Assembly: GCA_022730455.1 (NCBI GenBank)
Contig: DZDI01000001.1
Location: 4,829-68,828, forward strand
Length of the DNA: 64,000 nt
From: Phycisphaera mikurensis
GTDB lineage: Bacteria; Planctomycetota; Phycisphaerae; WQYP01
Direction: 5' to 3'
Shown here: positions 17,970 to 62,159 of the stretch, piece by piece
Numbering within the stretch: position 1 is the stretch's first letter
Layout of the letters: each line of letters opens with the position of its first letter
Translations under genes and position numbers: made by a program
The notes under the pieces: generated by a model
Database searches by the model: none
Told to the model about the DNA's origin: nothing
Seen by the model: the letters and a program-made list of their open reading frames with translations, nothing else

Positions 17970-17991
17970 TTTTAAGTCGGGAGGCAGCCGT

Positions 17992-44539: not shown

Positions 44540-44565
44540 ATTGGCGCGGTCATTTTTACATCGGA

Positions 44566-45384
44566 GTGGCTATGAAATCGCTGAAACCTGCCAATATCAC
44601 GAGGCGAGTTCAGCTTGCAGATATCAAGCCTGGCGACCGCTTGGGTCTTGAAGATAAGGATATCACCCACCAGCAAACTGAAGCCATTACACGCGAAATC
44701 GGCGACTTGCAGCAACAACTGTTTTCCGATTCAACGCAGGCGTTGCTGGTTATTTTACAGGGAATGGATACGGCAGGGAAAGATGGAACGATCCGTCGTG
44801 TTTTTGATCATATCAATCCGGCAGGAATGAGTGTCAGCAGTTTCAAGACCCCCGGTGGCGACGAAATATTGCACGACTTCCTCTGGCGGGTACACCAGCG
44901 CGTTCCCGCATTTGGACACATTGGTGTTTTCAATCGGTCGCATTATGAAGATGTCCTGATCGTAAGGGTGCACGCAGAATCGATGTTGCCTCCACATTGG
45001 CAACGCGAAAAAAATCTTTTCAAAAAGCGTTTCGATATGATCAACAGCTTTGAGCATATCCTGCACCAATCGCGCATAAAAATTGTCAAATTCTTTCTGC
45101 ATATTTCAAAGGACGAACAGTTGGCCCGGCTCAAGGCTCGAGAGAAGGACCTGAACAAAAACTGGAAACTCTCGGCATCGGATTTTGCAGAGCGAAAATT
45201 TTGGAACAAATATCAGTCGTGCTACGAAGATGTGATTTGCCATACATCGACGCCTAATGCGCCGTGGTATATCGTGCCATCGGATCACAAATGGGTGCGG
45301 GATCACTGTGTGGCCACCATTGTGCGCGATACACTGCTGGCTATGCATCCTCATCCACCGCGGGCCACAAAAAAACCGATCTGA
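44566..45384 (+). CDS. ppk2: Polyphosphate kinase 2 (PPK2, polyphosphate:nucleotide phosphotransferase)
   Basis: Walker A-like GMDTAGKDG, FNRSHYEDVL, lid region; 272 aa single PPK2 domain. Confidence 0.8.
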   Translation: MAMKSLKPANITRRVQLADIKPGDRLGLEDKDITHQQTEAITREIGDLQQQLFSDSTQALLVILQGMDTAGKDGTIRRVFDHINPAGMSVSSFKTPGGDEILHDFLWRVHQRVPAFGHIGVFNRSHYEDVLIVRVHAESMLPPHWQREKNLFKKRFDMINSFEHILHQSRIKIVKFFLHISKDEQLARLKAREKDLNKNWKLSASDFAERKFWNKYQSCYEDVICHTSTPNAPWYIVPSDHKWVRDHCVATIVRDTLLAMHPHPPRATKKPI

Positions 45385-45621
45385 GATGGCTTACCAAAAA
45401 TTCAGTTAAATCCTTGGTTTACGGCCTTCTTGGGTTGGCCGTCGGCTACCGTCTATCATTCCCAAACACTGCACCCCATCGGTGTGCTTCAAGCACCGCG
45501 AGATATGGGTACGGGCATCTCAAATTGATGGATTTCTCAGACTCTCTGTGCCCCGCATGCCGCCGTGCAGGTTCACCTGCGTGCATATACCGTAATAAAA
45601 TTGGGAGGTATACTGGAAACA

Positions 45622-46440
45622 ATGTTTGAGTTCATGAGTACTTTTGCAGATCGCTTGGGCGCCTACAACTGGTGGATCGTCTGCATTGAACTCCTGCTCA
45701 TCGGTGCCGTCGTCCACTCCGTACTCTATTTTTTACGCGATACGCGTGGTGCGCGTCTTATTCGCGGCACTATTTTGTTTTTGATTATCGCCTTTACGGT
45801 AATCTGGCTCAGCGGTAATAAGCTGATCCGCGTCGAGTTTTTATTTCAAAGGGTTCTGCTTTTCACCAGCTTGGCTATCGTTGTCGTCTTTCAGCCGGAG
45901 CTAAGGCGGGCACTGATGCGCCTGGGCGAAGCCAGATTATTCCGTGTAGGACAGAAAAAACCGTCCGATATGGTTGAGGCCCTAGTTAAAACGGCTGATT
46001 ATTGCTCACGCAATCGCATCGGAGTGTTAATCGCCATTGAACGGCAGGTTGGCTTGGCGGGCCTTGCAGAAAATGGAGCATCTCTCGATGCCGAGATTAC
46101 CAGTGAATTGCTCAATACCATTTTTTGGCCCGGATCAGCACTTCATGATATGGGCGTCGTCATTCGGCACGGGCGATTGGCGGCGGCGGGCGTGCAATTT
46201 CCCCTCGACGAGGGTGGTGACCTGCCGACCGAACTTGGCGCCCGTCATCGCGCCGCCCTAGGCCTGTCTCAGGATACCGATGCCCTCATCCTTGTGGTCA
46301 GTGAGGAGACGGGCATAATTAGTATTGCCCAGCGCGGGAAGCTGGATCGTGGGCTTTCGCTGGATGAACTTCGGCGGCGACTGCATCAAGACCTGGATAT
46401 TGGCTCTCAAGTCGCTCATGATGACTCTATTCTCGCGTAG
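45622..46440 (+). CDS. cdaA: Diadenylate cyclase CdaA (c-di-AMP synthase), 3 TM + DAC domain
   Basis: Three N-terminal TM helices, DAC motifs GVLIAIER, LHDMGVVIRHG, GARHRAALGLSQDTDALILVVSEETGIISIA; listed ORF opens with GTG 45565, ATG at 45622 preceded by GGGAGG. Confidence 0.85.
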   Translation: MFEFMSTFADRLGAYNWWIVCIELLLIGAVVHSVLYFLRDTRGARLIRGTILFLIIAFTVIWLSGNKLIRVEFLFQRVLLFTSLAIVVVFQPELRRALMRLGEARLFRVGQKKPSDMVEALVKTADYCSRNRIGVLIAIERQVGLAGLAENGASLDAEITSELLNTIFWPGSALHDMGVVIRHGRLAAAGVQFPLDEGGDLPTELGARHRAALGLSQDTDALILVVSEETGIISIAQRGKLDRGLSLDELRRRLHQDLDIGSQVAHDDSILA

Positions 46441-46449
46441 AGAGGAGAA

Positions 46450-47574
46450 ATGACCACGAAAAAAGCAGGCCCCAATCTTGCCGCCCATCTGAAAATATTG
46501 CCGCTGACGGTAATTCTTACCGTACTGCTTTGGCTTTATGCCGATGCCCACCTGACGGCGACCCAGCATGACGTGCCGGTGAAGGTAAGGTTCGCCGCAT
46601 CCAAAAACAATCATGCCATGACGGTAAGTCCAAGTTTGCCTCAGGACGGAGAATATGAGATAAGTATTTCCGGTCGCAAAAGCGGTGTAAGCCAGGTGGC
46701 TGACCAGCTTTTAGGCAGGGTCATGCTCACGGCGATTGACCGGCGCGATTTAACCAGCGAGTTTAATGGTGCCCATTTTCGCTATGGAAAGACATATACT
46801 TTCAGCACCAGCCAGTTGCTGAACGCATTGCCATATTTTAGAAGACACCACATCGCGGTCATCGCGGCGCAACCGCGTAAAACCAAACTGGTTTTTGACC
46901 GCCTCTTTCATATCCGTCGCCCGGTTCAATTTTCCGCGCTGATGGGTATTCACGCAGTTATAAAGCCCGCGACGGCGGTGGTAACCATCGCTGGCAGTAC
47001 GCTTAAGCGCATCGGCGGTGGGGAGGAAATTTCAGTTGAGGCCCAGCCGTTGCAAAGTCTTACAGGTCTGCCGCCTAGCTCAAAACAGCGTATAGAGGCC
47101 CAATTAATTGTTGACTATCCCGGAGCCGTCCGACATGCGGTAACAGTTAGTCCGGCCACGGTGGTGGTGAGTTTTGTCGCACCGCGTGGAAAACGCAAGG
47201 TTTTGCATGTGGGGGCCGTGCCCATATGGGTACAGGGGCCGCCAGACATTTTACGGCGCTATCGGATTGAAGTCCGGCCGGCGGTGGTCTCCGTCTCCGT
47301 CTTTGGCGGAGCCCGAACGATTCGTCGCCTTGAGGCCGATATCGTATTAGGATCTGTAGCGCCCATCAATAAACAAATCATCGGTTTCGTCAGTTTGCCG
47401 CCGTCGATCAAATCCACGGCTCGATGGCTTACCCACAGCGTACACTACTCTTTGCCCGAAGGCGTATCCATTGTCAAAAGTCCGCAGACCGTGAAAATTA
47501 AGATCAGTCGCCGCCCGGTTGCACCGCTTCCCGGTGCGGCGCCGGCCACTACTGCTCCAGTGGTGCGCCCATGA
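46450..47574 (+). CDS. cdaR: CdaR (YbbR-like domain regulator of CdaA)
   Basis: Immediately downstream of cdaA, N-terminal TM anchor, repeated YbbR-like beta domains, 374 aa. Confidence 0.65.
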   Translation: MTTKKAGPNLAAHLKILPLTVILTVLLWLYADAHLTATQHDVPVKVRFAASKNNHAMTVSPSLPQDGEYEISISGRKSGVSQVADQLLGRVMLTAIDRRDLTSEFNGAHFRYGKTYTFSTSQLLNALPYFRRHHIAVIAAQPRKTKLVFDRLFHIRRPVQFSALMGIHAVIKPATAVVTIAGSTLKRIGGGEEISVEAQPLQSLTGLPPSSKQRIEAQLIVDYPGAVRHAVTVSPATVVVSFVAPRGKRKVLHVGAVPIWVQGPPDILRRYRIEVRPAVVSVSVFGGARTIRRLEADIVLGSVAPINKQIIGFVSLPPSIKSTARWLTHSVHYSLPEGVSIVKSPQTVKIKISRRPVAPLPGAAPATTAPVVRP

Positions 47575-49112
47575 AAGGTGACCATCCACTCTTTGCCAAC
47601 CTGCCATCGTCTACGCCGGTACCGTCTCAATCATCCACTTTACCATTGTCAAAGAAGGCATCGGTCTTAGAGCCGACAGACGTGCCTCGGCGATCGGCTA
47701 CGATGACCGTATCTGAGGCGTGCGACCTGCTTGGTAATGTTATTGCCAACCTTACACCCTATCCCATCCAAATCCGTGGCGAAATAACCAATTGGAAAAT
47801 TGCTCGCAGCGGGCACGCCTACTTCTCCCTTCGCGATGATGAGGCCTCATTAGAGTGCATCATGTGGAGAGGCGAATTGGGCAAATTGACGTTCGCTCCC
47901 ATGGACGGAATGAAGATTGTCGCCAGCGGCCAGACGCGTTTTTACAAGCCGCGCGGACAGGTTAATTTTCATGCCGTCGGCATCTCACTCGAGGGGCGCG
48001 GAGAATTGGAGTTCCGCTACCGCGAGCTTTGCAACAGGCTCCTCGCTGAAGGTTTGTTTGCCGCCGGACGAAAAAAAAGTATCCCCCAATTTCCGATGCG
48101 CATCGGCTTGATTACCAGCAGTGTCGGCGACGCCCTGTTTGACGTTGTCACCACCGCACTGCGGCGTTTTCCGCCTCTGCAAATTATGTTTGCCCCGGCG
48201 CAGGTTCAAGGAGTTGATGCTGCCGCAGATATCTGCCGTGCTATCCATCTCATCAATGACAATATCGATACGCTGGGCCCGATAGACGCCATTTTATTGG
48301 TGCGTGGTGGGGGATCTCTGGAGGATTTGTGGGCATTCAATGATGAAACGCTCGCCCGCACCATCGCCGGAAGCCGCATCCCCATTGCTACCGGCATCGG
48401 CCATGAACCGGACCAGACCATTGCCGACTTGGTGGCTGATGTGGCGGGCCCCACGCCCACCGGTATCGCCCAGAAAACCGTGGGCGACATTACCGAAGTG
48501 GCTGAGAAATTAAATTATTGTGGCCAGCGAATGGCCGAGAAAACGATGCAATGCTTTGACGGCCGCAACCGCGATCTTGACGCTGCCGAAGAAAAAATGG
48601 AAGGGTATATTCTTCGCCGGATATCGGATATGCATCGTTTGCTGGACCGCCTGGGCCAGAAAATAAATTCCATTGAACCGTCGCGGCTTGCTGGTCAAAA
48701 GGCGATGGCCGTTGAAGCGATCCGAGAGCGACTTACGGACGCCATGCAGCGGCGTGTGGATGATTATCGGCCGCGGTTGGAGCAAATTAGAAATACAATC
48801 CATCATGCATCGCCAGCGATGTACGCGGCGCGACTATCCATGAAATTAGAGGTAGTCGCCCGTGATTTACCAGCGATTCTGCACGATCGCATTCGACAGA
48901 CGTCCGAGCTATGCCGTCATTTGGTACTGCGATTGAATGAATCGCACCCCGATAAAATTCTTCAGCGGGGTTTTTCCATCACAATGCTGGAGGATGGAAG
49001 CGTTCTTAAATCAGTCGTCGATGTGCTGCCCGGGTGTACACTGACCACTCGGCTGGCGGATGGGAGGTTGATAAGTGTGTTAAAGGCAATGGAACGGGGC
49101 GAACGGGTATGA
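47571..49112 (+). CDS. xseA: Exodeoxyribonuclease VII large subunit (alternative canonical start at 47700)
   Basis: OB-fold N-domain (IQIRGEITNWKIARSGHAYFSLRDD), catalytic core (LITSSVGDALFDV, LLVRGGGSLEDLWAFNDE, GIGHEPDQTIADLVADVAGPTP) and coiled-coil C-terminus; ORF start ATG overlaps cdaR stop (ATGA). Confidence 0.85.
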   Translation: MKGDHPLFANLPSSTPVPSQSSTLPLSKKASVLEPTDVPRRSATMTVSEACDLLGNVIANLTPYPIQIRGEITNWKIARSGHAYFSLRDDEASLECIMWRGELGKLTFAPMDGMKIVASGQTRFYKPRGQVNFHAVGISLEGRGELEFRYRELCNRLLAEGLFAAGRKKSIPQFPMRIGLITSSVGDALFDVVTTALRRFPPLQIMFAPAQVQGVDAAADICRAIHLINDNIDTLGPIDAILLVRGGGSLEDLWAFNDETLARTIAGSRIPIATGIGHEPDQTIADLVADVAGPTPTGIAQKTVGDITEVAEKLNYCGQRMAEKTMQCFDGRNRDLDAAEEKMEGYILRRISDMHRLLDRLGQKINSIEPSRLAGQKAMAVEAIRERLTDAMQRRVDDYRPRLEQIRNTIHHASPAMYAARLSMKLEVVARDLPAILHDRIRQTSELCRHLVLRLNESHPDKILQRGFSITMLEDGSVLKSVVDVLPGCTLTTRLADGRLISVLKAMERGERV

Positions 49113-49187
49113 TGGCGACGACTAAATGCCATCCGCGGGGGCGGCATCAGGTGTGGAGGTGCTTGTCACGAAAAACCACTGGAGAAT

Positions 49188-49448
49188 ATGATGGCCGAAA
49201 AGAAAAATGATGCTTTTAATCTCGAACGCACTTTGGATGAATTGGCGAAAATGACGGAGCAAATCAGTTCCGGTAAGGTGGGGTTGGAAGAGAGCCTGCA
49301 GCTTTATGAAAAAGGTATGCGTATGATTACACATTGCCGCACGTATCTGGATACCGCCGAATCTCGCATCAAAGTGATCGCACAAAATGCCGGCGGGCTG
49401 GATATCAAAGACGCCTCGGTGGGTGAACTCAAGGGCAGGCAATCCTGA
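49188..49448 (+). CDS. xseB: Exodeoxyribonuclease VII small subunit
   Basis: 86-aa helical protein with XseB pattern (LEESLQLYEKGMRMITHCRTYLDTAESRIKVI). Confidence 0.75.
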   Translation: MMAEKKNDAFNLERTLDELAKMTEQISSGKVGLEESLQLYEKGMRMITHCRTYLDTAESRIKVIAQNAGGLDIKDASVGELKGRQS

Positions 49449-49509
49449 TCGTTGTGGCTCAATCAAGGTGAAGTACATCCCATGGTGTGATGGAATTCCG
49501 GAGTGATCA

Positions 49510-50742
49510 ATGAACCAGAATCATCGCATGGACCACCAACCCATATCGGTTTGGGGAATGAATCTGGCCATTGGCTATCTCTTCGCTTTATCGATGGCGA
49601 TTCTTCTTGGCGCAATACTGTTGGGGCTCGCATTCTCCGCCGGAATCGTCAAGTCCATCGGAGACTTCGCTGATGGCAGTGTGGCTCTGGTGTTATGCCT
49701 GATAGCCGGCATTATTACCAGCGGCGTGGTTTTCAGTTTTGCGATGGCACTCACTGGAGTTAAATCGCAAGTGCTTCTGCTTTTGCACCTTACTAAGGCC
49801 GGCGATGGTGCTGACGTGCGCCTCGTATCGCTGGAGCAAGCCTTCCATGAACTGGGGGCAACCATAAAGAATATGCCATCGATGCCGCACGTGGCCGTGC
49901 AGCCGACGGTAGTTCATGATGCAGGTAAGGTCGCCAACCAAGGCGATCTGACTCAGTTATTGGCTGTGATGAATGACCTGCACGATACGCTGCTCATGGG
50001 AGAATCGGAAAAGGCCGCCGTCCTCAAACGTCGTATGGATCAGAAGCGTCGCATGCTGATGGAAAGATTCCGTCACCATCTTCGCCACGAAGAATGGAAG
50101 AATGCCCAAGCCATACTTCAGGATTTCAATCTCCTGCTTCCAGATGATCCGCAACAAAGAGAAATGAATGATGAATTAAGTTTTGCCCGCCAGCGCAAAA
50201 TTGATCTGGATCTCTCTGATGCGCAGGATCGCATTCGTGGCTGGATTAGCACCAACCGCTGGGAGATGGTTGAACCGCTGATTGCCAAACTGGAACTCCA
50301 ATATCCAGACGACACCGGCGTGGTGAATTACATTCAGCAGATACGGTACGAAATGCAGAGTTGGCATCAAGAGGTGCTGCAGAATCTGATTGGTCAACTC
50401 AAGGATGCGAGCGATCATCGCCAATGGCGGCGTGCGACATTGATCGCCCAGCAACTATTTGAAAAATACCCGGATGATAAATTAGTTGAAAAATTACGCA
50501 TGGAACTTCCTACGCTTCGCAAAAATGCCGACCTGCAGGAAGTAAAAGACCTCGAAACCCAATTCAAAGAATTACTCCAGCGTCGGCGATACGATGAAGC
50601 TTTTCCCATTGCGCAAAAAGTGATTGATGAGCATCCTGAAACGGCCGTCGCCACTGAACTCGTTAAAATGCTGCCCAAGCTGCAGGAATTGATGAAACAG
50701 GACAAACTGCGACGACAGGCTGAGCTTGGTCAACTGGGCTGA
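49510..50742 (+). CDS. Hypothetical membrane-anchored coiled-coil/TPR-like protein
   Basis: N-terminal 3 TM segments, then long alpha-helical region with recurring (Y/L)PDD motifs (LLLPDDPQQ, LQYPDDTGV, FEKYPDDKLV, DEHPETAV). Confidence 0.45.
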   Translation: MNQNHRMDHQPISVWGMNLAIGYLFALSMAILLGAILLGLAFSAGIVKSIGDFADGSVALVLCLIAGIITSGVVFSFAMALTGVKSQVLLLLHLTKAGDGADVRLVSLEQAFHELGATIKNMPSMPHVAVQPTVVHDAGKVANQGDLTQLLAVMNDLHDTLLMGESEKAAVLKRRMDQKRRMLMERFRHHLRHEEWKNAQAILQDFNLLLPDDPQQREMNDELSFARQRKIDLDLSDAQDRIRGWISTNRWEMVEPLIAKLELQYPDDTGVVNYIQQIRYEMQSWHQEVLQNLIGQLKDASDHRQWRRATLIAQQLFEKYPDDKLVEKLRMELPTLRKNADLQEVKDLETQFKELLQRRRYDEAFPIAQKVIDEHPETAVATELVKMLPKLQELMKQDKLRRQAELGQLG

Positions 50743-50800
50743 TTGCGTATCAACCACGTGATGATGTTGTTCCATGCGCCGTCAGCGCTCGTTGCACGGG

Positions 50801-53203
50801 TCATTGCAGAGGTGCGCGTCGCAATCGCAATGCATTGGTAATGACCGACACGGAACTAAAGCTCATGGCCGCCGCTGCAATCATGGGACTGAGCAAAATT
50901 CCGAAGAAGGGATATAAAACTCCCGCCGCAATGGGTACGCCGCACGCGTTATAAACAAATGCAAACACCAGATTCTGGCGTATATTACGCATGGTAGCCC
51001 GGCTGATTAATATGGCCTGAAGCACCTTGTGTAAATCTCCATGCAGCAGTGTCACACCGCTGCTGGAAATGGCTACGTCCGAACCGGATCCCATTGCGAT
51101 GCCAACATCTGCCGCGGCCAGCGCTGCCGCGTCATTAATACCATCGCCAATCATTGCGATCGTGAGGCCTTTTTCCCGTATCTGCTGGATATGTGCATGT
51201 TTGTCCGCTGGCAGCAGCTCGGCCTGGTATTGAGCTATCCCAACTTGTTCCGCCACATGTCTGGCGGTACCGGCGTTGTCGCCGGTCAGCATGATAACGT
51301 TTAACTTCAATTTTTTGAGTTCGCTTACGACCGCCGCAGCATCTTCGCGCAGAGGATCTGCCACACCAATTATCCCGCATATCTGTCCGTCTGTTGCCAG
51401 CAATATCACAGATTGACCATCTGTTTCGTACTTATCCAATTCCGCGCCCACCGGCGCGATATCCACATGGGCCTCATCCATCATGCGGCGATTACCCAAT
51501 AGCACTTTATGCCCCAATACCTCGCCACACACACCGCGACCGCTGACTGCCTGGAAATCCCGGCAATCGGGTATGACAAGGTGGCGACCATCGGCGGCCC
51601 GTAAAATGGCTGCCGCTAGAGGATGCTCACTGGCCTTCTCCATAGCCGCCGCCATAGCAAGCAGTTCAGATTCGCCATCGGCCTGAACCGACTTGGTGGA
51701 CACTACTTCGGGGCGGCCACGCGTCAATGTGCCCGTCTTATCCAACGCAATAGTGTCAACGCGGCTGAGCGCTTCGAGGGCCTCAGCATTGCGAATTAAA
51801 ATCCCATGACGGGCGGACCTGCCAATGCCGACCACAATCGACACCGGGGTGGCCAACCCCAGCGCACACGGACAGGCAATAAGCAATACCGCCACCGCGT
51901 TGACTAAGCCATAAACGGCGGCCGGACTTGGGCCCCATATCAGCCAAGCGATAAAGGTGACAATGGCAACCGTGACCACGGCTGGCACAAAAACTCCCGC
52001 TACTCGATCGGCCAATTTTTGCACCGGCGCGCGGCTTCGCTGCGCTTCACTGACCAAATTGATAATCTGAGAAAGTGTTGTTTCGGTCCCGACGCGCTCA
52101 GCCTTCATCACCAGCGCCCCATTGCCATTGATAGCACCGCCCGTCACCGTGGCGCCGATTCCTTTTACGACCGGTGTGGGTTCGCCGGTTAACATCGATT
52201 CATCTACGGTGCTGCGGCCGTCGATCACGACGCCATCCGCGGGTATTTTCTCTCCGGGCCGGACTCGCAGTAGATCACCCCGCGTCAGGGCATCAATGTG
52301 AACATCGGATTCTGATCCATCCGGGGCGACTCGGCGTGCGGTTTTGGGTGCCAGCAATAAGAGTTCACTCATCGCCGCACCGGTTTTTCTGCGAGCCCGC
52401 AGTTCCAGTACCTGTCCCAACAGTACCAATGCGGTGATTACCGCTGCCGCTTCGAAATAGATGTGCACAAGACCGCTGTGATTCTGAAAATGTTTTGGAA
52501 ACCAGCCCGGTGCCAGCATGCCAATCAGACTGTAGCTGTACGCCACGCCGACACCCATGGCAATTAATGTAAACATATTGAGATTCAATGTGCGTATGGA
52601 TCGCCAGCCGCGGACAAAAAATGGCCAACCAGCCCACCACACCACAGGCGTGGCCAGCAGGAACAGCAACCCCTGCAGCCACCGCGCTTGATTCAAATGG
52701 GCCACGTGGCCATCAGCCAGCATCGACAGGACCACAATCGGAATCGCCAATACCACTGAAACCACAAGTCTTCGCACCATATCGCGGTATTCAGAATCAT
52801 CCTGCTCGTCATCTGCAGATGGAGACATGGGTTCCAAGGCCATCCCGCATTTTGGGCATGGTCCGGGTGCGGTTGATTTAATTTCCAGATCCATCGGGCA
52901 GGTGTAATATTTGACGCGCGTGGCATCAGCAACATTGCCTTGTTGGGCGTGAAATCGTGCCTCTGATGCCGCCATACCGTGGCCAGCTAAGCTTGCGGTT
53001 GTGTCTTGATTCGATTTTTGAAGAAACGATCCCGGGTTTACCTTGAATTTCTCCAGACAGCTTTTGCCACAGAAATAGTAGGTGTGACCGTCGTATGAAT
53101 GGCTGCCCGCACATTTTTGCGGGTTTACCTTCATGCCACAAACCGGGTCAAGAGCCATATGAGCCTGTTCATGCTGGTCTCGATTCAACAGGTCAATTTT
53201 CAT
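50801..53203 (-). CDS. copA: Cu(I)/Ag(I)-translocating P1B-1-type ATPase with N-terminal TRASH/YHS and YTCPM-type metal-binding heads
   Basis: [18 protein letters not shown] (TRASH), [29 protein letters not shown]6 CPC ([12 protein letters not shown]), DKTGTLT, GDGINDAPAL, Cu-type TM7/8 residues (VYNACG..., [15 protein letters not shown]). Confidence 0.85.
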
Positions 53204-53266
53204 GGTGCAATATCCTGCCTTTCATTCGGTCACTTTACAACTTCAGATATGGGTTAGCAATTCCAT

Positions 53267-53494
53267 CTAAACGGTTCTAAATGGTGCAATCCGCGCTCGG
53301 GATAGAATGGGAAAAAAACCCGCCGGCACCCTCCGACCTCCCACACTTTTGGCGCGGACTTCGACCGACGCGTCCCTCATATCCAGGACGCTGACCTCGC
53401 CTGATGGGCGGAGCTCCTCGTTAATCAGTGCAATGGCGTCCGCACAGGCGGGATAGCCGGCGATGAATCCTTCGATCTTCCGTTTCGTGTTCAT
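53267..53494 (-). CDS. Small hypothetical protein (75 aa) in metal operon
   Basis: Starts (MNTKRK) directly after the stop of the Trx-MerC gene; Cys-containing (FIAGYPACADA); listed ORF extends to 53575. Confidence 0.3.
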   Translation of the reverse strand: MNTKRKIEGFIAGYPACADAIALINEELRPSGEVSVLDMRDASVEVRAKSVGGRRVPAGFFPILSRARIAPFRTV

Positions 53495-54240
53495 AGGGAC
53501 ACGCCTCCGCCGGGAGCACATGCAGAACAACTGCCGCCGCTCACGCCGGTCGTTTTCCGCGGCCAAGCGTTCCAAATGGATGCGACCACCAGCAGTACCA
53601 TCCCGCTACCGATCGTCGCATCCGACACCAAGATGAATTTGCCAACGAGCACAGCCGCCGCGGCGGCCAAGCCAAGTGCGCAGGGGGCATACCCTCGGCG
53701 CGACTTGGCACGGAATGCCAGCGCGCCGACCGCGACCAGCAGAAGCAGGACGGTCACCGGCAGCAGATAGTCCGTCTTCAACAGAAATCCAAGCCCCAAA
53801 GTGCTTAGCACCCCAGCGTAGACGGGCCAGCAGGCGGGACACACCCCAACCGGCAGCAGCGTCGCGCCGACCGCGGGCAGCACCACCAAGGAACTCAGCC
53901 CGCGAGGACTCAGCGCAGAGATGCCCGGCGACGCAGACGCCCCGGCGGCCTCAATAATGGCCTTCTCGATCATGTCGACACCCGGCATGTTCGCGCCGCT
54001 GAATGTCCGACAACCGAATCCATAACTGGCCTCGACGCGCTGCGCTGGATCGATGTCTTGTCCGTCGATCAGCACAGTCGGCGATCCGATGAACTTCATC
54101 GCGACCGGATCGTCGTCTTGTGTCAGCTTGACCTCCCGGATGTCCGCGATGACGCCAAGCCGACTGACGGTCTGCTTAACACGTTCAAGCGTGGGCCGGT
54201 GGTTGGGGCAGCCGTCGAAATAGAGCACTTCGATATTCAT
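53491..54240 (-). CDS. Fusion of N-terminal thioredoxin-like (FDGCPNH) domain and MerC-like heavy-metal transporter membrane domain
   Basis: N-term MNIEVLYFDGCPNHRPTL..; membrane part GVCPACWPVYAGVLSTLGLGFLL parallels MerC TM1 (GCAACFPALASFGAAIGLGFL) and ends in a Cys-rich cytoplasmic tail SCSACAPGG; start codon overlaps merR stop (ATGA). Confidence 0.5.
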   Translation of the reverse strand: MNIEVLYFDGCPNHRPTLERVKQTVSRLGVIADIREVKLTQDDDPVAMKFIGSPTVLIDGQDIDPAQRVEASYGFGCRTFSGANMPGVDMIEKAIIEAAGASASPGISALSPRGLSSLVVLPAVGATLLPVGVCPACWPVYAGVLSTLGLGFLLKTDYLLPVTVLLLLVAVGALAFRAKSRRGYAPCALGLAAAAAVLVGKFILVSDATIGSGMVLLVVASIWNAWPRKTTGVSGGSCSACAPGGGVSL

Positions 54241-54656
54241 GATGATTCTCCCTCATGGGATTCCAGGGCTTTGAGAATGGGACACTCCTCGGTGGGGCGG
54301 CCGCGTTTACAGTCGCGGGTCAATCCGGCAAGTGTGCGGCGCATCTTTCGGAGTTTGCGGATACGTTCATCGATGTCGCTGATTTTGGCCTCAGCCAGTT
54401 CAAACACCTCGTCGCATCGACTATCGGGTTCAAACCGCAAGTCAAGCAGCTCCCCGATCTCACGCAGGGTAAAGCCAAGTGCCTTCGCGTGACGGATGAA
54501 GCGGATGCGGTCTACCACCGTTGGTTCATACTGCCGATAACCGGATGCTCGTCGGGCAGGTTCTTTAATCAGTCCTTCTCGCTCATAGAAGCGTATGGTT
54601 TCCACACCGACGCCCGCCTGAGTTGCCACTTTTCCAATTGTAAACATCGCCATCAT
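54237..54656 (-). CDS. merR: MerR-family heavy-metal-responsive regulator with Hg/Pb/Cd-type Cys triad
   Basis: HTH (FTIGKVATQAGVGVETIRFYEREGL), coiled coil, Cys81/Cys116/Cys125 with spacings 35 and 9 as in Tn21/Tn501 MerR (C79/C114/C123) and PbrR/CadR; not CueR-like (C-x7-C) or ZntR-like (CC). Confidence 0.75.
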   Translation of the reverse strand: MMAMFTIGKVATQAGVGVETIRFYEREGLIKEPARRASGYRQYEPTVVDRIRFIRHAKALGFTLREIGELLDLRFEPDSRCDEVFELAEAKISDIDERIRKLRKMRRTLAGLTRDCKRGRPTEECPILKALESHEGESS

Positions 54657-54670
54657 CGTTCTCCGTCGTC

Positions 54671-54703
54671 ATTCTACACCCCGTACCATACTACGGAGTC
54701 AAG
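54671..54703 (-). promoter_or_regulatory. MerR-type promoter/operator: -35 TTGACT, 20-bp spacer containing dyad CCGTA-N6-TACGG, -10 TAGAAT
   Basis: Minus-strand reading TTGACTCCGTAGTATGGTACGGGGTGTAGAAT then GACGGAG SD and merR ATG; near-identical to Tn501 merOP TTGACTCCGTACATGAGTACGGAAGTAAGGT. Confidence 0.65.
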
Positions 54704-54811
54704 GTGTGTGGTTGAGAACTTTACGCGACGGGCCGCCCGTTGATGCCGGATTGGCATTGAGTACGACCTAATCATTGCACGCAAACTATGGGCAGATATG
54801 CCAGATGAACG

Positions 54812-55672
54812 TCACGGCACTGATGCCATTGACACCAGACCCGCGAAAGTGCCGAGCGGAATTTTACGATCGGTGATACCCTGCCGAACGGCCCGAGAGG
54901 TGGCACCCTGCCACTCTATTTCACGTTCGGCCACCAGCCGCGTTGAATTCGCAGGTAAACCCTCCGCTTGGCCGGGGTGGATCATGATTTCACCTTTGCC
55001 GGAAGGCAAGCGATCTAAAATCGCCAGCCAATGTTGTTCACTAAACGCACCCGTGGCCGCCAGACCATAGAACCAGTCGGTCGTTTGCAGACCCGCCCGC
55101 GCCAGCTTTTTAGCTAATTGGTACGCCAAAGTCACCAACAGTCGATATCCCAAGCCGCTTCGGATGATGCCCAGTCTTGTTTCGCGTGCACACCGAATAG
55201 CCGGTATGTTGTACTCTCTGGCCAGTTCAATCGCGATATCCTGCAGTACAGGCCAGTGGTGAATATGCTTATGGCTATCCAAGTGGGTGGGTTTAAGCCC
55301 CAATCCCATGGCGAATTCAATTTGAGCCCGCCACTCACACCGCGCCTCATTTCGCGCCTCTTTGCTAAATTGCAGTTTCCGAATAAGTTGCGGCACAGAC
55401 TGATCCAGTACAGATGGCAGGCCCATGCCGGACGGCTTGGCTAGGACCCGCACCATCTTTGACAGGGGGGTACCCTGGGTCAGGCAAAGATGGATACCCA
55501 CGCCGAGGTTCGGCACAGCGGCCGCCAGAGATGCAGCTCGTGCCGCGTCGGGCATGGTGCACATGAGCGTGGTGCTGGTTAATATTCCGCGGTGATGACA
55601 ATCGATGATGGCATCGGTGACGCCTGGCGAAAATCCAAAATCATCCGCATTAACAATTATTGATGTCGGCAC
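54812..55672 (-). CDS. YdjC/ChbG-family carbohydrate deacetylase
   Basis: N-terminus MPTSIIVNADDFGFSPGVTDAIIDCHHRGILTSTTLM (YdjC signature incl. catalytic Asp and His), 286 aa. Confidence 0.8.
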   Translation of the reverse strand: MPTSIIVNADDFGFSPGVTDAIIDCHHRGILTSTTLMCTMPDAARAASLAAAVPNLGVGIHLCLTQGTPLSKMVRVLAKPSGMGLPSVLDQSVPQLIRKLQFSKEARNEARCEWRAQIEFAMGLGLKPTHLDSHKHIHHWPVLQDIAIELAREYNIPAIRCARETRLGIIRSGLGYRLLVTLAYQLAKKLARAGLQTTDWFYGLAATGAFSEQHWLAILDRLPSGKGEIMIHPGQAEGLPANSTRLVAEREIEWQGATSRAVRQGITDRKIPLGTFAGLVSMASVP

Positions 55673-55693
55673 CTTTGTATTTTCGTGCCCTTT

Positions 55694-56386
55694 TCATCGT
55701 CCCGCAACCGGTCGGTATATTTCCACCATGAGTAACTTTCGTCCCCAATGCTGTGCCTGCCACAGTGTCGGTGAAAGCACATCCAATCGATATCCTTTGA
55801 TCGCGCCCCCGCGGTCTAACACCGGCACCGGCTGATCGCCATCATACCCCGGCACACGCACCATCATTCCCATCGGAATCAAACGCGTATCGGCAGCCAC
55901 CAGATGGCCATCATTTGTCTTGACGCTTTTGCCCGATGCCGTGGTTGTGCCCGGATAGGGCCAACAGCAGTATCGATCTGGTGCATAACTGGTGACGACC
56001 AGACGTAGGTGCTCCCAGGGCACAAAATAACGGCCGTGATACCAAAAACCTCGCTTGACCACGGGCGCAGGTACCGGAGGACTAAAAACTTGCCGACGTG
56101 GTGCTATTGGTGCTGCAGGCTCCCCCGGTTTACTCCGATCTGCGGCAACCTGCCCTTCAGACGGCTGGACGGTCTGACTGCCCACCGGTCTGAGCATCGA
56201 CTGTGGTGTGCCATGATTTGTTGGGCTGACGATCTCTGCGCTCGCTAAGAGACGCGGAATATGCCCCATGCGCCAAAACAAGCTCAATCCCAGAAATAAC
56301 AGAACAAGCAGCCCCATCAAGGCCCCAAGTTCCCATAATTCGCCACGGTTGAGATGCCGTGATCGCCGCATGTCGCAAATCTCCAA
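55694..56386 (-). CDS. Membrane-anchored 3D-domain protein (MltA-like/YabE-like cell-wall binding/lytic module)
   Basis: N-terminal TM anchor, Pro-rich linker, C-terminal 3D domain with the three Asp-containing blocks (YCCWPYPGTTTASGKSV..GHLVAADTRLIPMGMMVRVPGYDG..VLDRGGAIKGYRLDVL). Confidence 0.65.
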   Translation of the reverse strand: MEICDMRRSRHLNRGELWELGALMGLLVLLFLGLSLFWRMGHIPRLLASAEIVSPTNHGTPQSMLRPVGSQTVQPSEGQVAADRSKPGEPAAPIAPRRQVFSPPVPAPVVKRGFWYHGRYFVPWEHLRLVVTSYAPDRYCCWPYPGTTTASGKSVKTNDGHLVAADTRLIPMGMMVRVPGYDGDQPVPVLDRGGAIKGYRLDVLSPTLWQAQHWGRKLLMVEIYRPVAGR

Positions 56387-56781
56387 GAGACACTATTTGC
56401 GTCCGTGCGTCCATCAGCCGTCCATGGCAATGCCAATTCATGTTCTTCTCTATCAAAGGCTGAACACCACTTAAGTTCGATCCAGTTACCAAGACTCTGA
56501 GAAGTGTTCACCCACTTGCGAGTATTCTACCCGCCAGCCACGGTTAAAACAAAGCGAAACAAGGCCAGAAAACATGTTATAGGCCCCAACGATGGCGTAA
56601 ATCACCATTATGAGAATAACAACATCATAAACATGAATTATTTTGTCGTTATAGTTGTTATAAAATGCCGCCTCGGATGCTGCACTGCGACCTTTCTGCG
56701 TAATGGCGGTTTGCGTCAGAATGGTTGGTTGTGGCGAAGCGATGCTATGGCGCCACGCCTATTTGACAGAGCACTACTGCC

Positions 56782-57456
56782 TCACTCCATTTGAATTACC
56801 GGGTATAATCGGCGGAGTTTGATTCGGGCGTCGGCCGTTCGGAATTGCCAATTAACTTTTTTAGTGCGATTATTGCGGTCGGCATTCCAGATGGAGATTC
56901 TCGCACGTAAGGTACTTTCATCGGGGATGCGATCGGCCAAGCATTGCTTCTGCATGACGCTGAGTTCGCACTCAGCCATGTTGAGCCAACTGCCATGTTT
57001 GGGCGTATGAACCACTTCGATTTTCTGCATGATCCTTCGCGCTTCTTCCGGATCAAATGCCTCGTACAGGCTGCTCATACGGTGGGTATTGAGGTTGTCC
57101 ATCACCAGTGTAATGCTAGGAACCTGCGGGTAAAGCTCATCGACCAGCATTTTCATCTGGCCAGCAAAGTCGAGCTTGGTCCTACGCGGCGTGACCGTCA
57201 CGTGCCGCTGCCCAGCCAACGGTTCGCTCAGCATAAACAAATTCGCCGTACCATGGCGTACGTACTCGTAGTCGCAACGCTCCGGCTGACCGGGGGCGGC
57301 GGGGATCGGCGTGGTGATTTCCCCCACCAATTGCTTGCCCTGCTCATCGAAACATACCACGGGATACTGCGGATCATACGGACGCTTGTATACCTCCAGC
57401 ACATTTTCCATGGCGCAGACAAATTCCGCGTTCTGCCGCGGGGGAATGCACCACAT
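56782..57456 (-). CDS. IS630-family transposase OrfB (DDE_3 catalytic domain); probably expressed as OrfAB fusion by -1 frameshift
   Basis: DDE_3 blocks (VVCFDEQGKQL, ..VMDNLNTHR.., ..HTPKHGSWLNMAECE..); -1 frame opens right at the A7 run of orfA (L K K then N E I K P W Q Q K M W...). Confidence 0.7.
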   Translation of the reverse strand: MWCIPPRQNAEFVCAMENVLEVYKRPYDPQYPVVCFDEQGKQLVGEITTPIPAAPGQPERCDYEYVRHGTANLFMLSEPLAGQRHVTVTPRRTKLDFAGQMKMLVDELYPQVPSITLVMDNLNTHRMSSLYEAFDPEEARRIMQKIEVVHTPKHGSWLNMAECELSVMQKQCLADRIPDESTLRARISIWNADRNNRTKKVNWQFRTADARIKLRRLYPVIQME

Positions 57457-57473
57457 CTTCTGCTGCCAGGGCT

Positions 57474-57971
57474 TTATCTCGTTTTTTTAAGCACACGCAT
57501 CACCGTCTGCGGCGAACACCGCTCGACAATCTTCAAGGCCACGGCCCGATCGGCCAGTAATTCCAACGTCCAGCGCGCCCGGCCCTCTGGCTTGGGACCA
57601 CAAGCTAACGCGATGAGCTTGGCCTCCTTCTCGCCATCGAATATTTTCTCGATACTTGGACGCTTCTGCTTTTTGCGGTCCAAGGCCGCATCCAAGCCTT
57701 CCTCCACCAATCGCTGACGCAACAATTCAATGCTACGCACGCTCAGGTGGAAAGCTTGCGCCGCCGCCTCATCTTTCATCTTCGGACCCGCTGCTGATTC
57801 ATCCACCGCCAGCAGAATATTGGCGTGCCTGATACGATAAGCTGTGGATTTGCCGACCCGGACGAGTTGCTCCAACCGCACCCGTTCCGCAGCGTCCAGC
57901 CGCACGATATACTTCTTCATGTCGATCCTCCTTGATCGTGGGCGAAAGGCCCCACAGAGATATCGGCACAA
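57474..57971 (-). CDS. IS630-family transposase OrfA (helix-turn-helix DNA-binding part)
   Basis: 165 aa, basic HTH-rich; ends ...RVLKKTR* within slippery CTT AAA AAA ACG. Confidence 0.7.
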   Translation of the reverse strand: MCRYLCGAFRPRSRRIDMKKYIVRLDAAERVRLEQLVRVGKSTAYRIRHANILLAVDESAAGPKMKDEAAAQAFHLSVRSIELLRQRLVEEGLDAALDRKKQKRPSIEKIFDGEKEAKLIALACGPKPEGRARWTLELLADRAVALKIVERCSPQTVMRVLKKTR

Positions 57972-58201
57972 TCATCCGATTACCCGTAATTGTGTTAGGA
58001 ACGTACCACTAGGCGCGTGTGGATGGACTTTACCTCAGCGCGTCGGCCAGCGGTGCGTCACCTTTCAATTCGGTGCCTACGCAGGCACGCGGCAAGACTT
58101 TTGATAATCGCTTTTTATGTAAAAAGTCCGCCGATGCGTATGGGTTGCGTCGGCGGACTTTGGAGGGTTACGGTGACAAGTCTGTACCTGTGAAACGGCC
58201 G

Positions 58202-60313
58202 TTATTTCAAACTGGCCAGTACGGTTTCCTTCACATTGTTCGGTACCTGGGCGTAGCTGTGTGGCTCCATGGTGTAGCTTGCTCGGCCTTGGGTAAGTGA
58301 CCGTAGATCAGTGGCATATCCAAACATGCTTGCAAGTGGTACGGTCGCATCAATCACCTGAGCGATGCCGCGATTTTCCGTATTCTCAATCATGGCTCGA
58401 CGGCTGCTCAAATCGCCCTGCACCGGGCCTGCAAATTCAATCGGCGTCGTTACCTGCAATTTCATGATCGGTTCCAGTAAAACCGGCCCAGCTTTTTTAG
58501 ACGCCGATTGCATGGCCAGAATACCCGCCTGCTCAAAGGCAATCTGCGAGGAGTCCACATCATGGTAGCTTCCGTCAAACAGCGATACCTTCATGTTCAG
58601 CATCGGGAAACCACCCAATACGCCTGATTTGGCCGCCTGTCGAACGCCATGCTCCACCGATGGGATATATTCTCGCGGAATCGTCCCGCCCTTGATTTCA
58701 TTGACAAACAAAAGCGTATCTTCTGAATCGTCACCATCCACGGGCGTGTACGGTTCAAGTTTAATCCAGCAGTCACCATACTGGCCGCGTCCACCCGATT
58801 GCTTGACGTGTTTACCCTGTGCCTCGGCAAGCTTGGTAATGGTCTCTTTGTATGCCACTTTGGGCTTACCGACCATCACATCCACCTTCATATCGCGTTT
58901 GAGTTTGTTGGCAATAATTTCCAGATGCAATTCACCCATGCCATGGATAATCGTTTGCCCTGTTTCAGGGTCAAAATTACTCCGGAATGTCGGGTCTTCG
59001 CGCCGCAGCACAGTGAGCGCTTCACCCAGCTTGTTTTTATCATTGGCGCTCTTCGGCTCGATCGACATGCTGATGACCGGCTCAGGAAATTCCATTTTTT
59101 CCAAGATGACGGGATGATCCGGATCGCACACGGTATCGCCTGTAAGCCCGTATTTGAAACCAACAATGCCCACGATATCGCCTGCTTCAGCGAAATCGCG
59201 CTGGTGTCTTTCGGCGGCGTGCATTTCCCAGATACGTGATGCAATCTCACGTTTATCGCGTGTAGAATTAATAATTCGGGCACCCGATTCCAGCTTGCCC
59301 GAGTAAATTCGCAGATAGCTCAAATCTCCATGTTGATCGCTGACAATCTTGAACACAATTCCGCAGAATGGTTCGTTGTTGTCCGCAAGGCGAATTATTT
59401 CCTTGTTTTTGTCGCGCGGATCATGACCCACGATGGGCGGCTTATCCAGTGGGCTGGGCAGATAATATACCACTGCATTTAACAGCAGTTGTACGCCCTT
59501 ATATTTCAACGCCGATCCGCACAACACTGGATTGATTGCGATGGCGCACGTCCCCTTACGCAGTGCCGCCTTGATTTCATCATTGGTAATGGGTTGTTCT
59601 GATAAATATTTTTCCATCAAAGCGTCATCACATTCGGCCGCTTTTTCAATCATGTATGCCCGCGCCTGATCTGCCTTGGCGGTGTGATCGGCAGGAATCG
59701 GTATTTCGCCCCAGGTGCGGCCTTTGGTGTCTTCTTCCCAACTGTACGCTTTCATTTCCAGCAGATCGATGACACCGGCAAAACTTTCTGACGCACCTAT
59801 CGGTATCTGGATAGGCACGGGGTGCGCTCCAAGGCGATCTTTAATCGTCCGCACACAGAATTCAAAGTCCGCTCCCACCTTATCCATCTTATTGATAAAG
59901 CAAAGCCGGGGAACCTTGTATTTAGTTGCTTGCCGCCATACCGTTTCGGACTGGGCCTCCACACCCTCACGCCCGTCAAACACCGCCACCGCACCATCCA
60001 ATACGCGCAGCGAGCGTTCCACCTCAACGGTGAAATCCACGTGGCCGGGGGTGTCGATCAGGTTGATGATGTATTCTTCGCCATCTGGTTTACCAAACAG
60101 GCGCCAGGGGCAGGTAGTCGCAGCCGCGGTGATGGTGATGCCACGCTGCTGCTCTTCTTCCAAGTGGTCCATCACGGCTGTGCCTTCATGCACTTCACCA
60201 ATTTTGTGCGTCTTACCCGTGTAAAACAAAATGCGTTCCGAAACAGTTGTCTTGCCTGCGTCGATGTGGGCTGCGATGCCAATGTTCCGAAACCGCACTA
60301 GATCTCTAGACAT
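58202..60313 (-). CDS. fusA: Elongation factor G paralog (not in an str operon context)
   Basis: G1 [10 protein letters not shown]3 DTPGHVDF, G4 NKMD, domains II-V; 703 aa; no rpsL/rpsG upstream and no tuf downstream. Confidence 0.85.
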
Positions 60314-60777
60314 AAACTAAACCCTTTATATAACCTTATCCTGATCCGACTAGATGCCTTCAAAAGCATCCATTTCAATTCCGCATCTCAGCGGTAATTC
60401 ACTCCATCAACCAATAATCTGCGTGAGTGCTGGTTGGGTCTGTTTAACACCTGAACGCACCACAAGCTTACGTCGGTGACTGCCACGCGCCGGGCCGTCA
60501 CAGGCCGCCATGCGGTACTTTCTCACATCTACGAGCATTTTCACGTTGTCCCTGCTACACATTCGGCGTTTACGCCCGAGGTCACCGTTTGCCAGCCCGT
60601 TCCCAGCCGCATAAGTATAGCGGCTTTCAGGCTGTGTTGGCAATCGCACATCGGGCTCGGTGTTCAAGGTTCTCGGGCGCCGCGGCTTTTACGCGCATGC
60701 CACCAACCGGCCGCCGACCTATAAAACGCGATGCGCAAACAATCCTTGGGCCTCTGATGCAATAATGAAATTCCGGC

Positions 60778-60805
60778 TTGACTTTCACATTTGCTGACCT
60801 ATACT
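60778..60805 (+). promoter_or_regulatory. Strong sigma-70-like promoter TTGACT-16 nt-TATACT heading a ~260-nt leader before the PEP-CTERM gene
   Basis: TTGACT 60778-60783, TATACT 60800-60805; located in a 750-bp non-coding interval. Confidence 0.4.
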
Positions 60806-61088
60806 GAGCCGTAGAGAGCAGGATTGTGAAGCTTAGAGGGGTGTTCCCACCAAGCAAATACAGTCCACGAAGTTGTTTTTTATTATTTACCTGCGGTTCA
60901 GGTGATGGTGGATTGTCGGGCACCTGTTTGGTGTGCGACCCCGCCGGGCGGTGTTGAGCGCTGCATCCGCTTGGACAGACTCCCAGGAATTCAGCAGCCG
61001 AGTCTGTCAATATCGCGTTTCTGTTCACCCGCACCAGGCCGCCGCGTAAATTTGAAAACATTCATGCATGATGAATGGATCAAGAATC

Positions 61089-62159
61089 ATGTCGATGCAG
61101 ATGTTCAAGTCAAAAGTGTTTCGCCACCGCGCGGTTGCCGCTGCCTGCACAGCCGCCATGTTCGTTGCTGCCGGCGCTGCCACCGCTAATATTGTGCCTT
61201 CTCCTTTTAGCTTCAATTTGGTAGCTCTTGGCAATGTGGGCACGAGCGCAAGCCCAAAAACGGCCGACGTTCAAGGTACGGCTGCCATCGTCGGCAACCT
61301 CTATGGCAGCGGGTGGAGTGCAGGCGATAGCGGAACCCCAGACGGCTATTCGCTTTACGTTGGTGGATCGGCTAATTTCGCGGGCGGGTCCATTGGCACC
61401 GGTGGCATGCAGGTTGGTGGCGACCTTACTTTAAACAATTTTGGAACCAGCAGTGCCATCGTGTCTGGTGGCAGCCTTTATGGAACCAATAGCGGCACCC
61501 TTTCCGGCCAAGTGACCTTGGCCGGAACCAACCAGTCGCAACTGACTATAACAAAAGGTCACTTGAACCAAAATACGACATTCAATCCCGCGTTCAATCC
61601 AACATCTCTAGTGTCGTATTTTAACACACTTTCATCTCAATATGCCCACCTATCACCAACGGTGGTGCCGTCCAATGTGGTGAATCAATACAGTACGCTG
61701 ACAATTACTGCATCTTCGCCGGGGGTGCAGGTGGTAAGCTTGGAAAGTGGCGTATTTGGCGCTCAGACATCCGTAGATGTGAAGTTTTCGGGCGGTAGCA
61801 GTAAGACCAACTATCTTATCATTAACGTGCCGGACTCGTCCCTGAACCTCAATTATCTGACTTTCAATTTCAGCGGCATCTCCGCGTCGAACGTGCTCGT
61901 CAATGCATACGATCTTAATACGCTTAAGCTCTCGGATGGCGGAAATTACAACTTGCTCGCTCCACTGGCGAACACGGATTACACTCAGGGTGCCTTCAAT
62001 GGCAATCTGATTGTCGATAACCTCACGGGTGTGGGGGAGTCTGACCACGGCGATTTTTTCAATGCCCCGCCGATGGCGGTGCCGACCCCGGAACCCGGCG
62101 CAATTGGCTTGCTGGCCATTGGTGCGGTTGGTTTACTGATGCTGCGTAAACGGGCATAG
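61089..62159 (+). CDS. Secreted PEP-CTERM protein with Gly/Thr/Ser-rich beta-helix-like repeats
   Basis: Signal peptide (MSMQMFKSKVFRHRAVAAACTAAMFVAAGAATA), repetitive G/S/T-rich middle, C-terminal PTPEPGAIGLLAIGAVGLLMLRKRA; listed ORF from 61068. Confidence 0.7.
   Translation: MSMQMFKSKVFRHRAVAAACTAAMFVAAGAATANIVPSPFSFNLVALGNVGTSASPKTADVQGTAAIVGNLYGSGWSAGDSGTPDGYSLYVGGSANFAGGSIGTGGMQVGGDLTLNNFGTSSAIVSGGSLYGTNSGTLSGQVTLAGTNQSQLTITKGHLNQNTTFNPAFNPTSLVSYFNTLSSQYAHLSPTVVPSNVVNQYSTLTITASSPGVQVVSLESGVFGAQTSVDVKFSGGSSKTNYLIINVPDSSLNLNYLTFNFSGISASNVLVNAYDLNTLKLSDGGNYNLLAPLANTDYTQGAFNGNLIVDNLTGVGESDHGDFFNAPPMAVPTPEPGAIGLLAIGAVGLLMLRKRA

Follow-up and report, generated by a model that had tools for sequence, protein, structure and literature searches.

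Within a 64-kb window of a Phycisphaera mikurensis contig (DZDI01000001.1), four minus-strand genes follow a single MerR-type promoter, and on balance we think it probable, if only just, that they include one soft-metal cassette of a widespread, self-contained kind, with Hg(II) the likeliest metal, whose third gene has decayed and which lies next to copA, the gene for a copper-type P1B ATPase. The window is the whole stretch analyzed here, and all coordinates are positions within it. A preliminary description of this DNA had treated the four genes as one co-transcribed unit; the genes themselves, the ATGA overlaps at both the merR/fusion and the fusion/75-aa open reading frame (ORF) junctions, and the 63 bp that separate this ORF from copA are just as it gave them, and nothing in the sequence bars read-through. 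The unit conserved across genomes, in contrast, is one of three genes and not four, to judge from gene order and homology: merR, a fusion of a thioredoxin-fold DF domain to a MerC-like membrane domain, and a gene for a Cys-rich Trx_3-type protein of ~89 aa, usually without an ATPase gene. The features of the window locus are:

54671-54702 (-): MerR-type promoter/operator; TTGACT, a 20-nt spacer with the dyad (T)CCGTA-N6-TACGG(G), TAGAAT
54237-54656 (-): merR, operon gene 1; MerR-family metal-sensing activator, 139 aa
53491-54240 (-): DF::MerC-like fusion, 249 aa
53941-54240 (-): DF domain (fusion residues 1-100); thioredoxin-fold head with invariant Cys11 (C-P-N) and Cys77 (C-R) and a GSPT cis-Pro-type motif
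53494-53871 (-): MerC-like four-helix membrane domain (fusion residues 124-249), with CPAC (C134/C137) in the first transmembrane helix (TM1) and a C-terminal CxxC (C238/C241)
53267-53494 (-): decayed Trx_3 gene (75-aa ORF); residues 1-58 homologous, tail unrelated
53275-53522 (-): segment absent from the sister strain L100, by blastn and the L100 gene table
50801-53203 (-): copA; P1B-1 (Cu+/Ag+-type) ATPase, 800 aa

Full-length relatives of the fusion number ~45 by protein search, and an exhaustive profile search (E ≤ 1e-30) collects 354 clusters at 50% identity; in a scan of one genome per species, relatives are present in 340 genomes. Gene neighborhoods, each covering flanks of 6-10 kb, were compared at 160 loci, made up of the best 80 of the 340 species loci and 80 further loci seeded by the DF domain alone; L numbers below denote individual loci. 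Nearly all of the best 80 come from metagenome-assembled genomes (MAGs) of Planctomycetota, Gemmatimonadota, Acidobacteriota, Myxococcota, Alpha- and Gammaproteobacteria, and others. merR lies directly upstream of the fusion and on the same strand in 73 of the 75 loci with room for it, and a Trx_3-type gene (~89 aa) follows the fusion directly in 68 of the 75; the merR-fusion-Trx_3 order also recurs in metagenome contigs and in most of the DF-seeded loci. We found no published description of the fusion or of the cassette in the literature outside subscription journals, and this widespread unit is apparently unstudied. The DF family already exists as an NCBI-curated family name, and the window copy is a partly eroded example of the cassette.

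The fusion was assigned from two profile matches. The 96-position NCBIfam model NF049942, “DF family (seleno)protein,” scores 94.7 bits over residues 3-94, above its cutoff of 70, and residues 124-224 match Pfam MerC (PF03203) at 26.5 bits (E 1e-5), narrowly missing the gathering score of 27.6, so that the thioredoxin-like::MerC-like fusion of the preliminary description is borne out with a MerC match just below threshold. All 23 of the aligned fusion homologues match MerC (best E 1.8e-9), and on sequence grounds the family is clearly homologous to MerC. Six Cys residues are invariant or nearly so in the alignment (C11, C77, C134, C137, C238, and C241); C134 and C137 are invariant within CPACWP in the first membrane helix, a motif that aligns with GCAACFPALASFGAAIGLGFL of Tn21 MerC, and for C238 and C241, which belong to the C-terminal tail, conservation is 90% or more. 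An AlphaFold (AF2) model built on the fusion alignment consists of a confident thioredoxin-like head (pLDDT ~90), a disordered linker, and four helices, with predicted membrane helices spanning residues 135-225; with four such helices and paired Cys residues both in TM1 and at the C terminus, the fusion has the architecture expected of MerC. Foldseek against the PDB returned only generic thioredoxin and SelW/Rdx-like matches for the head (best E 8e-3) and none for the membrane part, and a sequence-profile search of the PDB gave no meaningful match to the fusion, the top one being a poxvirus membrane protein (E 0.11). Charged loops lie between helices 2 and 3 (FRAKSRRGY) and after helix 4 (WPRK), and by the positive-inside rule the head and the tail would both be cytoplasmic, in agreement with the published topology of MerC. 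The motif CPxH, formerly put forward as the redox motif of the head, was rejected: His14 is not conserved, and it is C-P-N together with the distal C-R that is.

The head and the membrane domain are not always joined, and the head keeps other company as well. In-frame stops at L044:7971-8738 and L049:7971-8738 split DF from the MerC part into two adjacent genes, as in L103. merR, a DF::HMA fusion, and a P-type ATPase follow one another at L184:4126-7687; the gene order is merR, merT, merP, DF at L120, L153, and L155; and L125, L138, and L174 have merR, DF, and Trx_3 with no MerC-like domain detected.

The window regulator, to which the fusion is translationally coupled, is a genuine activator of the MerR type and has the Cys triad of a divalent-metal sensor. 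It matches the Pfam models MerR, MerR_1, and MerR-DNA-bind, and its best NCBIfam model is TIGR02051 MerR (134.3 bits, equivalog cutoff 150.85 not reached), ahead of ZntR (123/119), CadR-PbrR (115.5), and CueR (112.6 bits). The triad C81/C116/C125, described earlier as having Hg/Pb/Cd geometry rather than that of CueR, was recovered: Cys81, Cys116, and Cys125 align with C82, C117, and C126 of Tn21 MerR (39% identity) and are kept in 48/48 of the cassette MerRs extracted. In the MerR family, Cys instead of Ser at the equivalent of residue 81 is the mark of divalent-metal sensors (ZntR and MerR as opposed to CueR) and argues against sensing of Cu(I), Ag(I), or Au(I); a three-Cys site without added His or Cys ligands fits Hg or Pb, not Zn. 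The triad has the form expected of an Hg(II)-responsive MerR, though it is not exclusive to Hg, its spacing (n, n+35, n+44) being common to PbrR-type regulators. Of the candidate metals, Hg(II) would be the likeliest.

The promoter, TTGACTCCGTAGTATGGTACGGGGTGTAGAAT at 54702-54671(-), reads TTGACT-ccgtagtatggtacggggtg-TAGAAT, and merR starts 14 nt downstream. Its 20-nt spacer contains the dyad CCGTA-N6-TACGG, as had been described, and the pattern has a single match in the window even at two mismatches and 0 matches in 100 shuffles. A strict pattern (TTGAy, a spacer, and TAnnnT enclosing an inverted repeat) is found in 76 of 128 distinct merR-upstream regions, with a spacer of exactly 20 nt in 75 of these 76, and the operator arms co-vary across loci (CTCCGTA/TACGGAG, CCCTGAA/TTTAGGG, and CCTATAC/GTATAGG). 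Such compensatory changes in the arms, combined with a fixed spacer length, are good evidence that the cassette operator is functional. The layout was earlier called nearly identical to that of Tn501 merOP. Shared with the Tn21/Tn501 operons is a dyad operator that starts with TTGACTCCGTA and lies in an over-long spacer (the Tn21 site was verified in R100 at 532-572); the spacer is 20 nt in the cassette versus 19 nt in Tn21, and merR is the first gene of a co-directional operon rather than divergent as in Tn21 and Tn501. A second exact copy of the dyad CCGTA-N6-TACGG (CCGTATGGTGTTACGG) occurs at 41685-41700 (+), 23 nt upstream of a GH116 gene (41723-44539); exact dyads are expected ~0.02 times per window, and this copy, which is outside any long-spacer promoter, may be due to chance.

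The absence of a mercuric reductase, noted earlier, holds for the window. Among its listed ORFs of at least 440 aa none is a pyridine-nucleotide disulfide oxidoreductase (ten long ORFs were scanned with Pfam; XseA, EF-G, and CopA were identified separately; one 1034-aa ORF, at 6913-10017 (-), has no Pfam match at E ≤ 1e-5), and phmmer with MerA found no match in 44001-64000. A true MerA is encoded near the cassette at just one of the 160 loci, L090 (542 bits with a Tn21 MerA probe), and L039 and L055 give weak oxidoreductase matches to the same probe; hits of 116-161 bits obtained with a frameshifted MerA from L096 were ambiguous and were discarded, Tn21 MerA leaving L090 as the one clear case. 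At L090:1880-9628, in a Gammaproteobacteria MAG, the cassette lies beside merP, a second merC-like gene, a second merR, merB, and merA; this merA is without an N-terminal HMA domain and is immediately followed by a stand-alone DF gene. The DF domain is also found fused to MerT-MerP and to MerB; the order at L096 is merR, DF::MerTP, merA, and at L103-105 and L107 merR, DF, and merC are separate genes adjoining merB. These mer-type fusion partners and neighbors support a mercury-type role, and the DF domain acts like a module that has been shuffled among soft-metal loci.

The third gene of the cassette is where the window copy departs from its family. Intact cassette Trx_3 proteins (~89 aa) have CPAC and one more CxxC as well as a CC motif, and the Cys residues at positions 14, 17, 29, and 32 are at least 96% conserved in 70 homologues; the window ORF has Y, C, R, and G there, keeping one of the four. 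Its homology to Trx_3 covers residues 1-58 (53321-53494) and ends at …VPA, the tail (53267-53320) is unrelated, and the rest of Trx_3 beyond residue 58 was not found in any frame by tblastn. The sole Pfam match of the ORF is Glutaredoxin (E 0.058), it has no NCBIfam match, and it is not recognized as Trx_3 at the family level. Aligned with its relatives, the 75-aa ORF is a dead, truncated Trx_3 copy: the small Cys-containing ORF of the preliminary description exists at its coordinates, but as a decayed gene and not as an intact Cys protein. In the sister strain L100, which has 95% DNA identity to the window and the same flanks, a deletion of ~248 bp (junction ambiguous by 4 nt) removes the last ~9 codons of the fusion, including Cys241, together with the whole Trx_3 remnant and leaves the fusion stop 63 nt from copA. 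Between the window and L100, dN/dS is 0.14 for merR, 0.33 for the fusion, and 0.26 for both copA and the ydjC-like neighbor; the first two values indicate that merR and the fusion are still under purifying selection, and five or more independent assemblies have both genes intact. A 10-nt direct repeat, ATGGTGCAAT, is present at 53202-53211, at the copA start codon, and 79 nt upstream at 53281-53290, near the end of the Trx_3 remnant.

The fusion gene is GC-rich (0.61-0.70 over 53350-54100, compared with about 0.50-0.55 in the flanks), and an IS630-type transposase split into a helix-turn-helix ORF and a DDE_3 ORF (56782-57456 and 57474-57971, both on the minus strand) lies ~2.1 kb upstream of merR. 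Both the GC-rich fusion and the nearby element would fit arrival by horizontal transfer, from a donor of higher GC content; a search around the cassette for direct or inverted repeats that would mark an insertion gave only short repeats at chance level.

In the window, the cassette is flanked by the ydjC-like gene and by copA, a chromosomal gene of Cu(I) type. The genome is Phycisphaerae-like, and the EF-G encoded in the window clusters with a protein from a Phycisphaerae MAG. The pump is what it had been taken for: it has a YHS/TRASH domain (residues 19-62) and an HMBD (residues 99-125) as its heads, CPC at 444 (TM4), DKTGT at 488, YN at 751 (TM5), and MSFSS at 780 (TM6), and it scores 600.5 bits against the Cu-type P1B model TIGR01511, above the cutoff of 397. 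It is an ordinary member of the CopA-type P1B-1 ATPases with YHS/TRASH and HMBD heads; unusual is its place behind the promoter of a Cys-triad MerR. Just beyond its 3′ end, on the opposite strand, a 410-aa ORF at 49510-50742 (+) has no Pfam match at E ≤ 1e-5. Gene neighborhoods indicate that copA is usually not part of the conserved cassette. No ATPase gene lies near the closest relatives of the window fusion (L005, L006, and L016; 66% identity), and only four of the 80 species loci (L045, L049, L078, and L085) have a CopA-like gene within 8 kb, its distance ranging from adjacency to ~4.5 kb, with a different P1B type at one further locus. Over both locus sets, a P1B-1 pump is encoded within ~3 kb of the cassette at about nine independent loci. 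In three lineages (the window, L045/L139, and L176) its gene is co-directional and directly downstream; in L158, L049, L157, and L085 it has the same direction but precedes the cassette, and in L112 and L137 it is convergent. Nearly all of the cassette-side pumps share the CPC/YN/MxxSS motifs, and YHS and/or HMBD heads are present on those whose N terminus is on the contig (L045/L139, L049, L078, L085, and L176). The fusions at pump-bearing loci are only 36-53% identical to one another and have nearest relatives without a pump; the pairing therefore arose several times. The association of cassette and pump is not random, and clustering within metal-resistance islands is its simplest reading.

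These data bear directly on the possibility that the window holds a true four-gene MerR operon, in which a redox-headed MerC-like permease and a YHS/HMBD P1B pump would form an uptake-then-export or channeling module. Such an operon would account for the co-directional genes, the 4-nt overlaps, and the 63-bp gap, a distance at which the deletion in L100 also leaves the fusion stop, and for the repeated and independent recruitment of the same pump subtype (CPC/YN/MxxSS with YHS and/or HMBD). Transcription is compatible with it as well. No sigma-70-like promoter was found in 50500-55000, and the sole terminator-like structure, a hairpin followed by T7 at 53337-53322 inside the Trx_3 remnant, was rejected as a sign of separate copA transcription because its stability does not exceed that of shuffled sequence (z +0.71); with no blocking promoter or terminator before copA, read-through from the MerR promoter is plausible. 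The cassette-then-copA order recurs in L045/L139 and L176, and neither a promoter nor a terminator was found in the gaps of L045 and L176. We nonetheless regard a four-gene operon as unlikely. About nine-tenths of the cassette loci examined, including the closest relatives of the window, have no adjoining ATPase; a pump, where there is one, may be downstream, upstream, or convergent; the window junction passes through a truncated gene; the divalent-metal Cys triad is at odds with the Cu(I) motifs of the pump; and returning a metal to the periplasm right after its import has no obvious benefit. The cassette-copA linkage in the window is a secondary juxtaposition, and the notion of a permease feeding an efflux ATPase is weakened by the varying position and orientation of the pump and by the mismatch between a divalent-metal sensor and a Cu(I)-type pump.

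It is also doubtful, in our judgment, that the cassette is not a mercury system at all and instead has an accessory role in resistance islands for Cd/Pb/Zn or Cu/Ag, where it would handle another soft metal, but several observations favor this and weigh against Hg(II). MerR falls under the TIGR02051 cutoff with the ZntR and CadR/PbrR models close behind, almost equal in score and likewise below their cutoffs. The 20-bp spacer, universal in the family, is typical of PzntA, and several of the operator variants look like sites of the PzntA or PpbrA type. The score for MerC is weak, under the Pfam gathering score and, at 26.5 bits against a cutoff of 140, far under the NCBIfam equivalog NF033784. 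Held against a canonical mer operon, the locus lacks merA and falls below both the MerR and the MerC equivalog thresholds. Cassettes often reside in Cu/Ag/Zn-type islands, their frequent neighbors being HME-RND pumps (RND pumps at 19/80 loci) and the outer-membrane (OMP) and membrane-fusion (MFP) partners of RND-type pumps, multicopper-oxidase-like genes (11/80), CDF genes, and Cu-type P1B pumps, and the stand-alone DF gene of L101 adjoins a multicopper oxidase and an ATPase. Inducible import in the absence of a reductase, moreover, should sensitize cells, as with merT/merP/merC when merA is missing; the benefit of a reductase-free importer is the weak point of the mercury hypothesis, and any hand-off or sequestration step after import is a guess. 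What tips the balance back toward mercury is that all identifiable DF fusion partners and the tightest neighbors are mer-type (MerC, MerT-MerP, MerB, and MerA), that MerR is the top-scoring regulator model, and that the sensor has a three-Cys site without extra ligands, fitting Hg/Pb, with Cys and not Ser at position 81. Far less probable than either alternative is that the cassette in this genome is a decaying, horizontally acquired remnant without current function. Its fusion gene, at a GC of 0.61-0.70 against ~0.52 in the flanks, the IS630-type element 2 kb away, and the dead third gene, deleted in the sister strain along with one Cys of the C-terminal pair, would suit this explanation, but merR and the fusion are intact in those five or more assemblies, their dN/dS values resemble that of the neighboring housekeeping genes, and the promoter is intact.

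If the window carries a soft-metal cassette that most probably responds to Hg(II), as we favor, its action could be pictured as follows. A MerR homodimer would sit on the dyad within the over-long 20-bp spacer; binding of a thiophilic divalent metal through Cys81′/Cys116/Cys125 would realign the -35 and -10 elements and switch on the regulator’s own operon, as homology and the co-varying operator suggest. The MerC-like domain would use the CPAC pair of TM1 to bring the metal through the inner membrane, a role for which the invariant Cys residues and the precedent of MerC argue, and would then probably pass it to cytoplasmic thiols, namely, the C-terminal CxxC of the fusion and the DF head (Cys11/Cys77). 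More speculatively, Trx_3, with its CxxC pairs and CC motif, could in intact cassettes be the next acceptor or a reductant for these thiols; DF and Trx_3 could take the place that NmerA/MerA have in classical mer operons; and the metal could be either (i) buffered or (ii) handed to MerA/MerB or to a pump encoded elsewhere. In this lineage Trx_3 is dead, merR and the fusion are still under purifying selection, and transcription probably reads into copA. Gene content, conservation, and the cysteine pattern are seen directly in the sequence, whereas every transfer step is our inference. Going one step beyond, we entertain as a tentative and rather improbable idea that the cassette represents a distinct MerA-free mercury/soft-metal system, in which thioredoxin-fold thiol proteins replace the reductase as acceptor and which in several lineages is wired to a YHS/HMBD P1B pump, so that import, thiol relay, and ATP-driven expulsion would come under a single MerR promoter.

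Set beside known systems, the cassette resembles the mer operons of Tn21 and Tn501 in having a MerR activator with the same three Cys residues, and that of Tn21 in its MerC-type protein, which has four helices, CxxC in TM1, and paired Cys residues at the C terminus. Unlike these operons, it has no merA, merT, merP, or merD, its MerC domain is distant (~26 bits) and bears an N-terminal thioredoxin-fold domain, and a gene for a Cys-rich Trx_3 follows. NmerA and MerP offer an analogy for the proposed role of the DF head as a small Hg(II)-receiving thiol domain beside a transporter or reductase, but DF has a thioredoxin fold and Cys residues far apart (C11 and C77), whereas the HMA fold is ferredoxin-like with its Cys residues in a GMTCxxC loop. 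Pairs of ArsP and MTH895/ArsE are similar in that a small Trx_3-type protein is encoded right after a Cys-bearing membrane transporter; L103 itself holds an ArsP_1 + Thioredoxin_3 pair, and the two intact Trx_3 copies that were scanned match TIGR00412, “MTH895/ArsE family” (24.8 and 25.7 bits), and MJ0307-family thioredoxin. These scores are, however, far under the cutoffs (62 and 92.75), and the cassette differs in the second CxxC and the CC motif of its Trx_3 and in a partner that is MerC-like, not ArsP. ZntR, PbrR, and CadR share features with the cassette regulator, namely, the Cys triad spacing (PbrR), the 20-bp spacer (PzntA), and near-equal HMM scores; they normally control P1B-2 pumps, whereas here the coupled target is MerC-like and the nearby pump is P1B-1.

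Elsewhere in the window, downstream of an ORF at 17932-18777, what looks like an imuB-dnaE2 mutagenesis pair is made up of a Y-family IMS/ImuB-like gene at 18677-20269 (+) and, immediately after it, a gene for a DnaE2-like second DNA polymerase III alpha subunit at 20276-23515 (+).

Mercury resistance is normally equated with MerA, and surveys of the mercury cycle count merA, merB, and hgcAB. Hundreds of uncultured species from many phyla have the cassette described here, almost never with merA alongside. The window itself offers a partly decayed cassette beside an ordinary copA; of greater interest is the family to which it belongs. If the cassette handles Hg(II) or organomercury, it would constitute a reductase-independent mercury route that current gene surveys miss and would also explain what the DF (seleno)protein family does; its members, going by the NCBIfam family name, presumably include selenoproteins.

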